Of a DNA stretch of 64,000 bases, positions 1 through 29,780 are shown in pieces; the stretch's first letter is position 1, and the number at the start of each line of letters is the position of its first letter. The stretch comes from Apteryx mantelli (lineage: Eukaryota), in NCBI RefSeq assembly GCF_036417845.1, contig NC_090015.1:64001-128000 (forward strand). Reading direction: 5' to 3'. The notes below the pieces were generated by a model that worked only from the letters and a program-made list of their open reading frames with translations, ran no database searches and was not told the DNA's origin. Position numbers and translations under genes: made by a program.

Positions 1-3000
1 TCTAGGGGGACCCAGGTGTCCGGGAGGGGCCCAGGCGTCCGGGGAGTCTCGCGTCACCTCTAGGGGGACCCAGGTGTCCGGGAGGGGACCAGGCGTCCGG
101 GGAGTCTCGCGTCACCTCTAGGGGGACCAAGGTGTCCGGGAGGGGCCCAGGCGTCCGGGGAGTCTCGCGTCACCTCTGGGGGGACCCGGGCGTCCGGGAG
201 GGGCCCAGGCGTCCGGGGAGTCTCGCGTCACCTCTGGGGGGACCCGGGCGTCCGGGAGGGGCCCAGGCGTCCGGGGAGCCTCGCGTCACCTCTAGGGGGA
301 CCCGGGCGTCCGGGAGGGGCCCAGGCGTCCGGGGAGCCTCGCGTCACCTCTAGGGGGACCCGGGCGTCCGGGAGGGGCCCAGGCGTCCGGGGAGCCTCGC
401 GTCACCTCTAGGGGGACCCGGGCGTCCGGGAGGGGCCCAGGCGTCCGGGGAGCCTCGCGTCGCCTCTAGGGGGACCCGGGCGTCCGGGAGGGGCCCAGGC
501 GTCCGGGGAGTCTCGCGTCGCCTCTAGGGGGACCCGGGCGTCCGCGAGGGGCCCAGGCGTCCGGGGAGTCTCGCGTCGCCTCTAGGGGGACCCGGGCGTC
601 CGCGAGGGGCCCAGGCGTCCGGGGAGTCTGGCGTCACCTCTAGGGGGACCCGGGCGTCCGGGAGGGGCCCAGGCGTCCGGGGAGTCTCGCGTCACCTCTG
701 GGGGGACCCGGGCGTCCGGGAGGGGCCCAGGCGTCCGGGGAGTCTCGCGTCACCTCTAGGGGGACCCGGGCGTCCGGGAGGGGCCCAGGCGTCCGGGGAG
801 TCTCGCGTCACCTCTAGGGGGGCCCAGGCGTCCGGGGAGCCTCGCGTCACCTCTAGGGGCACCCGGGCGTCCGGGAGGGGCCCAGGCGTCCGGGGAGTCT
901 CGCGTCACCTCTAGGGGGACCCGGGCGTCCGGGAGGGGCCCAGGCGTCCGGGGAGTCTCGCGTCACCTCTAGGGGGACCCGGGCGTCCGGGAGGGGCCCA
1001 GGCGTCCGGGGAGTCTCGCGTCACCTCTAGGGGGACCCGGGCGTCCGGGAGGGGCCCAGGCGTCCGGGGAGCCTCGCGTCACCTCTAGGGGGACCCGGGC
1101 GTCCGGGAGGGGCCCAGGCGTCCGGGGAGTCTCGCGTCACCTCTAGAGGGGCCCAGGCGTCCGGGGAGTCTCGCGTCACCTCTAGGGGGACCCGGGCGTG
1201 CGGGAGGGGCCCAGGCGTCCGGGGAGTCTCGCGTCACCTCTAGGGGGACCAGGGCGTCCGGGAGGGGCCCAGGCGTCCGGGGAGTCTCGCGTCACCTCTA
1301 CGGGGACCCGGGCGTCCGGGAGGGGCCCAGGCGTCCGGGGAGTCTCGCGTCACCTCTAGGGGGACCCGGGCGTCCGGGAGGGGCCCAGGCGTCCGGGGAG
1401 TCTCGCGTCACCTCTAGGGGGACCAAGGTGTCCGGGAGGGGCCCAGGCGTCCGGGGAGTCTCGCGTCACCTCTAGGGGGACCCGGGCGTCCGGGAGGGGC
1501 CCAGGCGTCCGGGGAGCCTCGCGTCACCTCTAGGGGGACCAAGGTGTCCGGGAGGGGCCCAGGCGTCCGGGGAGCCTCGCGTCACCTCTAGAGGGGCCCA
1601 GGCGTCCGGGGAGTCTCGCGTCACCTCTAGGGGGACCCGGGCGTCCGGGAGGGGCCCAGGCGTCCGGGGAGTCTCCTGTCACCTCTAGGGGGACCCGGGC
1701 GTCCGGGAGGGGCCCAGGCGTCCGGGGAGTCTCGCGTCACCTCTAGGGGGACCCGGGCGTGCGGGAGGGGCCCAGGCGTCCGGGGAGTCTCGCGTCACCT
1801 CTAGGGGGACCCGGGCGTCCGGGAGGGGCCCAGGCGTCCGGGGAGTCTCGCGTCACCTCTAGGGGGACCCGGGCGTCCGGGAGGGGCCCAGGCGTCCGGG
1901 GAGCCTCGCGTCACCTCTAGGGGGACCCGGGCGTCCGGGAGGGGCCCAGGCGTCCGGGGAGTCTCGCGTCACCTCTAGAGGGACCCGGGCGTCCGGGAGG
2001 GGCCCAGGCGTCCGGGGAGTCTCGCGTCACCTCTAGGGGGACCCGGGCGTCCGGGAGGGGCCCAGGCGTCCGGGGAGTCTCGCGTCACCTCTAGGGGGAC
2101 CCGGGCGTCCGGGAGGGGCCCAGGCGTCCGGGGAGTCTCGCGTCACCTCTAGGGGGACCCGGGCGTCCGGGAGGGGCCCAGGCGTCCGGGGAGTCTCGCG
2201 TCACCTCTAGGGGGACCCGGGCGTCCGGGAGGGGCCCAGGCGTCCGGGGAGTCTCGCGTCACCTCTAGGGGGACCCGGGCGTCCGGGAGGGGCCCAGGCG
2301 TCCGGGGAGTCTCGCGTCACCTCTAGGGGGACCCGGGCGTCCGGGAGGGGCCCAGGCGTCCGGGGAGTCTCGCGTCACCTCTAGGGGGACCCGGGCGTCC
2401 GGGAAGGGCCCAGGTGTCCGGGGAGTCTCGCGTCACCTCTGGGGGGACCCGGGCGTCCGGGGAGGGGCCCAGGCGTCCGGGGAGTCTCGCGTCACCTCTA
2501 GGGGGACCCGGGCGTCCGGGAGGGGCCCAGGCGTCCGGGGAGTCTCGCGTCACCTCTAGGGGGACCCAGGAGTCCGGGAGGGGCCCAGGCGTCCGGGGAG
2601 TCTCGCGTCACCTCTAGAGGGACCCGGGCGTCCGGGAGGGGCCCAGGCGTCCGGGGAGTCTCGCGTCACCTCTAGGGGGACCCAGGAGTCCGGGAGGGGC
2701 CCAGGCGTCCGGGGAGTCTCGCGTCGCCTCTAGGGGGACCCGGGCGTCCGGGAGGGGCCCAGGCGTCCGGGGAGTCTCGCGTCACCTCTAGGGGGACCCG
2801 GGCGTCCGGGAGGGGCCCAGGCGTCCGGGGAGTCTTGCGTCACCTCTAGGGGGACCCGGGCGTCCGGGAGGGGCCCAGGCGTCCGGGAGGGGCCCAGGCG
2901 TCCGGGGAGTCTCGCGTCACCTCTAGAGGGACCCGGGCGTCCGGGAGGGGCCCAGGCGTCCGGGGAGTCTCGCGTCACCTCTAGAGGGGCCCAGGCGTCC

Positions 3001-29780: not shown

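Follow-up and report, generated by a model that had tools for sequence, protein, structure and literature searches.

A 58-bp satellite array in the genome assembly of the kiwi Apteryx mantelli contains two near-identical internal duplications that meet inside a single 57-bp unit. The best explanation, to which we assign a probability of roughly 0.7, is a break that was repaired out of register in an array turning over by recombination among its own units. The footprint is that of ordinary out-of-register recombination in tandem repeats, with no regular higher-order repeat (HOR). The finding itself is modest, since large near-identical blocks in satellite arrays are expected from unequal exchange together with conversion.

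The window analyzed here comprises 64,000 nucleotides (positions 64,001 to 128,000 of contig NC_090015.1, RefSeq assembly GCF_036417845.1), and all coordinates below refer to it. An earlier note on this DNA had placed a 58-bp satellite at 1-29780; TRF recovers it as one array on the + strand (1..29795), with the left end cut by the window start. The period of 58 over 1-29795 is also scored at 116 and 174, and the row for 1-23217 is reported with 400.4 copies. GC content is 0.77 from end to end. Unit segmentation anchored 513 units, all arranged head-to-tail in + orientation as in a satellite, of which 449 are 58 bp long, 19 are 39 bp long and about 15 measure 76-78 bp. They fall into 143 distinct sequences, and the consensus, TCTAGGGGGACCCGGGCGTCCGGGAGGGGCCCAGGCGTCCGGGGAGTCTCGCGTCACC, accounts for 143 of the units. 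The consensus consists of two 19/20-bp cores and a 19-bp tail, with the + strand being the G-rich one. Each unit carries about 1.1 substitutions, evenly along the array (unit identity to consensus of about 98%), and a gradient of divergence from the array edge to its centre was sought, with none present. Transitions account for 76% of the unit variants and many sit at CpG, a bias that identifies the variants as true mutations and rules out sequencing noise. On the right, the array is flanked by a short 49-bp repeat (29796..30108, + strand) that holds the array's 17-nt core.

The array is non-coding, as judged by stop spacing and by a search of the whole window against Rfam, which gave zero matches. 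The 58-bp unit length is not divisible by 3, and the consensus has a stop per 174 bp in each + frame and two stops per 174 bp on the - strand, so that long open reading frames (ORFs) arise at variant units only. Because the consensus is closed every 57-58 codons, gene callers would seldom yield satellite proteins. A regular-expression count of non-overlapping G3+ quadruplex (G4) motifs gives 420 on the + strand and 0 on the - strand, or about 0.8 motifs of four or more G3+ runs per unit, all on one strand; G4 folding is predicted from the sequence. A scan of metagenome contigs for the 58-bp unit gave 0 matches. In the literature, we found neither a 58-bp microchromosome satellite nor the unit or core sequence as text, and no description of such an array in a palaeognath (kiwi); a palaeognath satellitome paper does not include kiwi.

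The array is intergenic and lies about 13.6 kb upstream of the start codon of ALDOA. Exons of ALDOA and PPP4C are present in the window, in the order ALDOA then PPP4C, and the reconstructed ALDOA protein agrees with that of Apteryx mantelli at all 364 aa. Locally expanded tandem repeats dominate the introns and intergenic DNA of the window: repeats with a period of 7 or more cover 87% of it and 72-97% of the large ALDOA introns. In chicken, ALDOA is located on dot chromosome 38 (Hron et al. 2026, PMC12954441). Avian dot chromosomes have a repeat-saturated landscape, for which G4-linked breaks, together with inaccurate strand invasion that ends in gene conversion, have been proposed (PMC12954441); the GC-rich repeat landscape of chicken dot microchromosomes has also been described by Huang et al. 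2023 (PMC9974502), and that of the zebra finch dot chromosomes from a T2T assembly (bioRxiv 10.1101/2025.10.14.682431, 10.1101/2025.10.17.683159). The kiwi record is 638 kb long, and the array probably lies in the repeat-saturated, gene-bearing part of a dot-type microchromosome. The presence in a palaeognath of the repeat-saturated ALDOA-PPP4C landscape of chicken and zebra finch argues that this landscape is ancestral to birds rather than lineage-specific.

The first duplication has an offset of 17,256 bp. Copy A occupies 1..4764 on the + strand, with its left end cut by the window and a sharp right boundary at 4764|4765, and copy B occupies 17257..22020 on the same strand. A gapped alignment of 1-4764 with 17257-22020 pairs 4,706 bases at 99.9% identity and shows 4 substitutions as well as two indels of one 58-bp unit each, in good agreement with the earlier proposal that 1 to about 4700 is a near-identical copy of about 17257-21950. 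An off-diagonal line at about 17.2 kb, on which that proposal had been made to depend, was looked for and is present. The two offsets originally noticed, 17,256 and 17,198, are the top two among rare 40-mers (2-3 copies), with 364 pairs at positions 49-4475 and 147 pairs at positions 564-1575, respectively. Five of the six pairs of sequence landmarks put forward for these offsets are identical over 60 bp as given, and the sixth slips by 2 bp, as 3694 pairs with 20950 and not with 20948. The three ORFs at 2323/2414/2730 do recur at 19579/19670/19986, with equal lengths and strands. The maximal exact matches between A and B are 2,785 bp (1980-4764 = 19236-22020), 1,103 bp, 755 bp and 438 bp. Past A4764 and B22020, identity falls at once to 82-97%.

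The few differences between A and B are of several kinds. Mismatches are confined to A129, 130, 133 and 1301. The first three of these fall within 125..137 (+ strand), where A reads GACCAAGGTGTCC and B reads GACCCGGGCGTCC; each of these haplotypes is also present at other places in the array, and we therefore read this stretch as one short-tract conversion. An extra 58-bp unit in A shifts the offset from 17,256 to 17,198 at 546..571 (+ strand), between the overlapping exact matches 134-571 and 546-1300, and a run of identical units that counts 8 in B (19178..19660, + strand) and 7 in A (1980-2404) brings it back to 17,256. Unit-sized indels, one of them in a stretch of identical units numbering 7 in one copy and 8 in the other, are typical of slippage or unequal exchange. 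All four substitutions between A and B lie within the first 2.4 kb (p about 0.07 under an even spread), a clustering that might hint at a more layered history. The copy may well extend to the left of the window: in B, units of the CCAGGTGTCC variant form a run that starts at 17094, three units before the counterpart of window position 1, which is consistent with this reasonable guess.

Both blocks are same-orientation, in-register copies with identity well above the background of the array. In 600-bp windows outside both duplications, the best match elsewhere has an identity of at most 99.0%; other long-range matches in the array peak at 97-99.0%, and the longest exact repeat apart from the two duplications is 289 bp. 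The 12.5 kb of satellite between copies A and B (4765..17256, + strand) has no near-identical partner inside the window (best match at most 99.0%). Identical consecutive units at a lag of 297 number 46, whereas 40 shuffles of the unit order give no run longer than 6; rare-variant matches number 18 at lag 297 and 11 at lag 296, with 200 shuffles giving 6 at most. The only unit lags above the shuffles are 296/297 and 52, and the underlying rare 40-mer pairs all lie within the duplicated blocks. Ungapped whole-overlap identity plotted by offset has a bump at 17,198/17,256 as well as register-only bumps near 19.3 and 20.6 kb; the duplication calls rest on rare k-mers and exact matches in place of this measure.

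The second duplication, which the earlier note does not mention, has an offset of 2,997 and directly continues copy B. Its left copy (21964..22788, + strand) ends at a 20-bp core indel and its right copy, block C, spans 24961..25785 on the + strand; the two share a 701-bp exact match and differ by a single mismatch (22665) over 825 bp. A three-way alignment shows that A, B and C are identical within the 57 bp of 21964..22020 (+ strand), the unit in which the two duplications overlap. To the left of this switch unit, B is identical to A but not to C; to the right, it is identical to C but not to A. The change from A to C in B is accordingly one clean switch within one consensus-type unit, and the joints lie inside homologous units, with no foreign sequence.

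Two other derivations of these structures were tried and rejected. The second duplication is not a 2,997-bp tandem duplication, as 19792-21963 and 22789-24960 are not near-identical, and neither are 22789-24960 and 25786-27957. One simple unequal crossover would place the right-side parent of the A|C joint upstream and the left-side parent downstream, and the opposite is observed.

From this footprint we infer that a break was repaired, that the two events are linked, in which direction sequence was copied and how old the events are. The array would turn over by out-of-register homologous recombination between its units. A recent break near the present position 22020 would have been repaired on misaligned copies within the array: to its left, at least 4.8 kb would have been copied from, or exchanged with, a site 17,256 bp (about 297 units) away, and to its right, 0.8 kb would have been copied from a site 2,997 bp (about 52 units) away. 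The outcome would be the 5.5-kb block 17257-22788, whose sequence follows A and, from within one unit onward, C. Changes in the two long copies since then would amount to a point change, a short conversion and the gain or loss of a single unit at two places. At typical avian mutation rates, the two point differences over about 5.5 kb point to an age of tens of thousands of generations or fewer. The left-hand event may have been either a 17.25-kb tandem gain (copy 1 = -12491..4764, copy 2 = 4765..22020) or an overwriting at constant array length. A point against break repair is tract length, as ordinary gene conversion tends to copy less than the 4.8 kb or more that would be required here. The A|C joint, the unit indels and the later haplotype swap make the locus a worked example of array turnover, with three event classes in 5 kb.

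Of the alternatives, we regard as possible rather than probable a single unequal exchange between sister chromatids or homologues that produced a 17,256-bp tandem duplication (junction 4764|4765), along with an unrelated 0.8-kb gene conversion whose start falls in the same unit by chance. For satellite arrays, unequal exchange is the classic mechanism, and the geometry fits exactly: A-type sequence stops at 4764 and B at 22020, so that the right flank of B would be the original continuation. The variant run that begins three units before the visible start of B likewise points to a leftward extension of the copy. Under such a duplication, 4765..17256 would be the first part of copy 2, with its twin to the left of the window and hence outside our view, which weakens the case. 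That 4765-12500 is unlike 22021-29780 does not exclude it, because a junction at 4764|4765 puts copy 1 to the left of the window. A further point against it is that two independent events would have to end in one 57-bp unit of a 29.8-kb array. This sharing of one unit by the end points is also the sole basis for linking the events under break repair, and we estimate the coincidence at roughly 0.4-2%. The tandem duplication can be regarded as a sub-model of the break-repair explanation, in which the events are real and do not stem from one break.

An assembly artefact, with either a repeat-graph node walked twice or both haplotypes of one region threaded in series, seems unlikely to us. G4-rich minisatellite regions of avian dot chromosomes lose PacBio HiFi coverage, as seen in zebra finch, where coverage falls in this sequence class, and older assemblies hold false haplotype duplications. 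The differences between the copies (one SNV, one haplotype swap and two unit indels) resemble those between two satellite alleles, and a mis-join in the graph via a shared unit could account for the A|C joint. However, there are no Ns or gaps in the window, and the flanks of each copy are distinct on all visible sides. A simple mis-threading of haplotypes also predicts that the sequence after the A|C joint should go on like the sequence after C, and it does not. Furthermore, the 2,603 40-mers that occur once in the array let reads anchor the 4.8-kb near-identical length, which is well under the typical HiFi read length. For assembly validation, the locus offers a concrete test case, namely a duplicate at a 17.25-kb offset in a setting where long-read coverage is known to fail.

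We consider it quite improbable that the array is a true multi-copy HOR repeating every 17.25 kb (about 297 units) and continuing to the left, such that the window would hold its last one and a quarter copies. The constant offset, the cutting of the copy by the window start and an inter-copy identity of 99.9%, above the typical unit-to-unit identity, are compatible with such an arrangement. Yet no further copy appears rightward despite 7.8 kb of remaining array, 22021-29795 matches the sequence from 4765 onward at background identity only, and there is no other unit-level periodicity, the rest of the array having local duplicates of 1-2 units only. The window contains two copies of the block, rather than three or more arranged head-to-tail, and unit variants show no periodicity across the array. 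The contrast between an inter-block identity of 99.9% and about 98% between unit and consensus is small, as the units are already homogeneous. The earlier note had allowed for either a recent large-scale duplication or an HOR; the former is supported, and the latter finds no support inside the window, with its two copies and no array-wide period. Monomers within an alpha-satellite HOR differ by 20-40%, compared with an identity of about 98% to the consensus for kiwi units. The kiwi array has in common with centromeric HORs (primate alpha satellite and the chicken 41-bp CNM, PMC9974502) multi-unit blocks far more alike than neighbouring units, resulting from unequal exchange, but differs from them in having two visible copies, no array-wide period and no sign of a centromere. 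The kiwi unit shares nothing with CNM as reported (41-bp unit with dyad symmetry; PMC9974502). Finally, the controls refute the idea that the similarity reflects a functional element under selection or consensus units that are alike by chance: the blocks are marked by rare variants and not by consensus units, shuffles never come near the observed run, Rfam yields no match, and the identity of ORFs between the copies follows trivially from DNA identity.

Returning to break repair, the match with the avian dot-chromosome landscape of 'sequence stuttering' includes the ALDOA neighbourhood, extreme GC content, repeat coverage and G4 motifs within the repeats (bioRxiv 10.1101/2025.10.17.683159). 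The mechanisms proposed in the dot-chromosome literature, that is, G4-linked breaks, inaccurate strand invasion and non-crossover conversion, match the kiwi footprint as well. Unlike the described avian dot arrays, which are intronic, short and degenerate, with units of 10-30 bp or 'imperfect tandems', the kiwi array is intergenic and at least 29.8 kb long, with a 58-bp unit at about 98% identity to the consensus. The key property of stuttering is length variation between individuals, and the kiwi array is known from a single sequence. We tentatively propose that 17257-22788 might preserve the outcome of one double-strand break in a G4-rich satellite, with one end repaired from a site about 297 units leftward, which may have added a 17.25-kb tandem copy, and the other from a site about 52 units rightward; given the kiwi host, 'sequence stuttering', so far described in chicken (PMC12954441), might then predate the divergence of living birds. 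If the single-break reading is true, the block would record, at the resolution of single units, how the repeat-saturated DNA of avian dot chromosomes is built up and reshuffled. A local break hotspot struck twice would give the same picture as a single break.

Similar structures are known outside birds. T2T assemblies of human centromeres contain intra-array segmental duplications, or 'layered expansions'. Like these, the kiwi array includes a young, near-identical multi-kb block within an older, diverged array, in the same orientation and unit register; its scale is smaller, and a two-donor joint is kept at single-unit resolution. The human minisatellites CEB1 and MS32 are 0.5-15 kb long and hypervariable, with transfers of a few units. 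They share with the kiwi array strand-asymmetric G-runs with G4 potential and mosaic alleles produced by conversion-like transfer of unit blocks, whereas the copied kiwi block comprises at least 82 units.

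The 58-bp array at window positions 1-29795, together with the duplications within it, is most likely a satellite reshaped by out-of-register recombination, a very well-known kind of which this array is a previously undescribed instance. Its significance and that of its duplications is low to moderate, the noteworthy detail being that one recombination joint can be placed within a single unit.

The array is a single unbroken tandem array with a period of 58 bp (TRF), a GC content of 77% and a constant G excess on the + strand. Its unit, TCTAGGGGGACCCGGGCGTCCGGGAGGGGCCCAGGCGTCCGGGGAGTCTCGCGTCACC, is composed of two 19/20-bp cores and one 19-bp tail. 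Among the 513 units delimited by cutting at the tail motif, 449 measure 58 bp, 19 have lost a core (39 bp) and about 15 have gained one (76-78 bp). Distinct unit sequences number 143, with the consensus itself represented by 143 copies; divergence from this consensus amounts to ~1.1 substitutions per unit, evenly throughout the array, with no gradient seen at the right edge. Transitions make up 76% of the unit variants, many of them at CpG sites, and non-overlapping G3+ quadruplex motifs number 420 on the + strand and 0 on the - strand. An Rfam search of the window yielded no match, and neither this 58-bp satellite nor any kiwi satellites were found described in the literature.

An earlier note had proposed a recent large-scale duplication inside the array, and this claim is supported: in a gapped alignment, positions 1-4764 (copy A) and 17257-22020 (copy B) are 99.9% identical across 4,706 aligned bases, compared with best matches elsewhere of at most 99.0% for 600-bp windows outside the duplicated blocks. 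The long-range offsets reported there, 17,256 and 17,198, were recovered as the commonest (364 and 147 pairs, all from positions 49-4475) in a survey limited to 40-mers with an array copy number of two or three. Five of its six landmark pairs are exact, the partner of 3694 lying at 20950 rather than 20948, and its three open reading frames (ORFs) are present again in the second copy. Such satellite ORFs are accidents of CTCTAG-to-CTCTGG variants, because the consensus array has a stop codon each 174 bp in every + frame. The longest maximal exact match between the copies spans 2,785 bp (1980-4764 and 19236-22020), followed by matches of 1,103, 755 and 438 bp; outside the duplications, exact repeats within the array do not exceed 289 bp, the longest being runs of consensus units. 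Substitutions between the copies occur only at A129, 130, 133 and 1301, and each copy holds one additional unit, A at ~546-571 and B within a run of identical units (8 in B vs 7 in A). Just right of A4764/B22020, identity drops to 82-97%, the level of any in-register comparison. At a lag of 297 units (~17,256 bp), 46 consecutive units are identical, vs at most 6 at any lag when unit order is shuffled; rare-variant matches number 18 at lag 297 and 11 at lag 296, vs at most 6 in the shuffles.

A lag of 52 units marks a second duplication, missed in the earlier note, in which 21964-22788 matches 24961-25785 (copy C) at an offset of 2,997; the two 825-bp copies differ at one position and share an exact core of 701 bp. 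This duplication terminates at a 20-bp core indel, and its left copy runs straight on from B. In a three-way alignment, B up to 21963 is identical to A and differs from C; across 21964-22020 the three blocks share the same sequence; and from 22021 on B is identical to C and differs from A. B together with its continuation (17257-22788, 5.5 kb) therefore forms a clean A|C mosaic whose only switch lies within one unit.

Given the shared orientation and unit register, the lack of foreign sequence at the joints and the indels of whole units, the duplications most likely arose via homologous recombination between misaligned repeats. Two readings of the first duplication remain. Either it is a 17,256-bp tandem duplication with its junction at 4764|4765, copy 1 extending from about -12.5 kb to 4764 and copy 2 from 4765 to 22020, in which case the window would hold just the tail of copy 1 and the right flank of B would be the original continuation; or B overwrote pre-existing units by long-tract non-reciprocal copying from A, leaving array length unchanged. 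Each of the two duplications has one end point inside the same 57-bp unit of the 29.8-kb array, a coincidence with an estimated chance of roughly 0.4-2% under either reading. One break near 22020 would be an economical account of both, each of its two ends having used a different misaligned template for repair, one at about -297 units and the other at about +52. This account belongs to the same mechanism class as the proposal of Hron et al. for chicken dot-chromosome repeats, who invoke breaks associated with G4 and inaccurate strand invasion that is resolved by conversion (PMC12954441).

Changes after the event comprise a private point change at A1301, the variant being unique in the array, a three-base A/B difference that swaps two haplotypes both recurring elsewhere in the array and is read as a short conversion, and two single-unit gains or losses. 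At general avian mutation rates, two point differences in ~5.5 kb point to an origin no more than tens of thousands of generations ago.

It is rather unlikely that the duplication is an assembly artefact. The A/B differences are also what two alleles would show, and in zebra finch dot chromosomes PacBio HiFi coverage falls in comparable G4-rich minisatellite euchromatin, with false duplications in older assemblies; however, the window has no gaps, the visible flanks of each copy are all distinct, and the sequence past the A|C joint diverges from that past C. Moreover, typical HiFi reads are far longer than the visible identical length, and many unique 40-mers are available for read anchoring. 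A single unequal crossover as the source of the joint is ruled out by block order, because the right-side parent would be expected upstream and the left-side parent downstream, the opposite of the observed A, A|C, C. The higher-order repeat that the earlier note offered as an alternative is unsupported within the window: it shows just two copies of the block, what follows A is not repeated in the 7.8 kb of array right of B, and at unit level no lags are prominent other than 296/297 and 52. The first duplication is thus not an array-wide higher-order repeat. Consecutive CCAGGTGTCC-variant units occur at 17094-17326 and 12-70; the run in B begins three units before the match to window position 1, which suggests that A extends left of the window.

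Human ALDOA and PPP4C sequences, used as probes only, located all 8 coding exons of ALDOA (tblastn; + strand, 43388-58863) at ~43388-43499, 46600-46815, 49172-49228, 50851-51012, 51867-51953, 52028-52204, 55211-55411 and 58768-58863. The spliced product (364 aa) is a full-length exact match to Apteryx mantelli XP_067170996.1 (638-kb record), and its closest cluster representatives are all avian (92-94% identity). PPP4C follows 2.2 kb after the ALDOA stop, with its first five coding-exon matches at 61095-63999 (+, tblastn), and continues past the window end; this gene order is the same as in human 16p11.2. Tandem repeats (period of at least 7) cover 87% of the window and, in the large introns of ALDOA, 72-97% of the sequence. 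Both figures agree with the 'sequence stuttering' described in chicken, where ALDOA lies on dot chromosome 38 (PMC12954441), and with the tandem-repeat content of zebra finch dot-chromosome introns (>70%). The intron picture described for chicken is present here in a palaeognath.

Beyond the satellite array, the window holds 83 further copies of its 17-nt core GGGCCCAGGCGTCCGGG (at most 1 mismatch; chance expectation, 0.06 per window), in four separate arrays at 29818-30087 (+), 42412-43334 (-), 58865-59927 (+) and 62948-63836 (+), with unit lengths of 49, 171, 19/39 and 83/186 bp, respectively. Their sites include positions just upstream of the ALDOA ATG, directly past its stop codon and within a PPP4C intron; it seems that local expansions started independently several times from a single short motif. 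The sole AT-richer stretch without tandem arrays between the satellite and ALDOA, 37860-38700, in which no gene or RNA was identified (Rfam search included), looks like a putative promoter, with several ATTTGCAT-like octamer motifs at 37866-38045, four CCAAT/ATTGG boxes at ~38180-38375 and ATGAATATTCAT-type palindromes. A ~100-bp unit, mostly GGGGGCGGGGCC (Sp1-like GC boxes), is tandemly repeated across 35114-37062 and yields a spurious proline-rich ORF of 1,000 aa on the - strand. About 100 copies of a 33-bp repeat (55440-58655) occupy almost the entire last ALDOA intron and give long artefactual ORFs on both strands.
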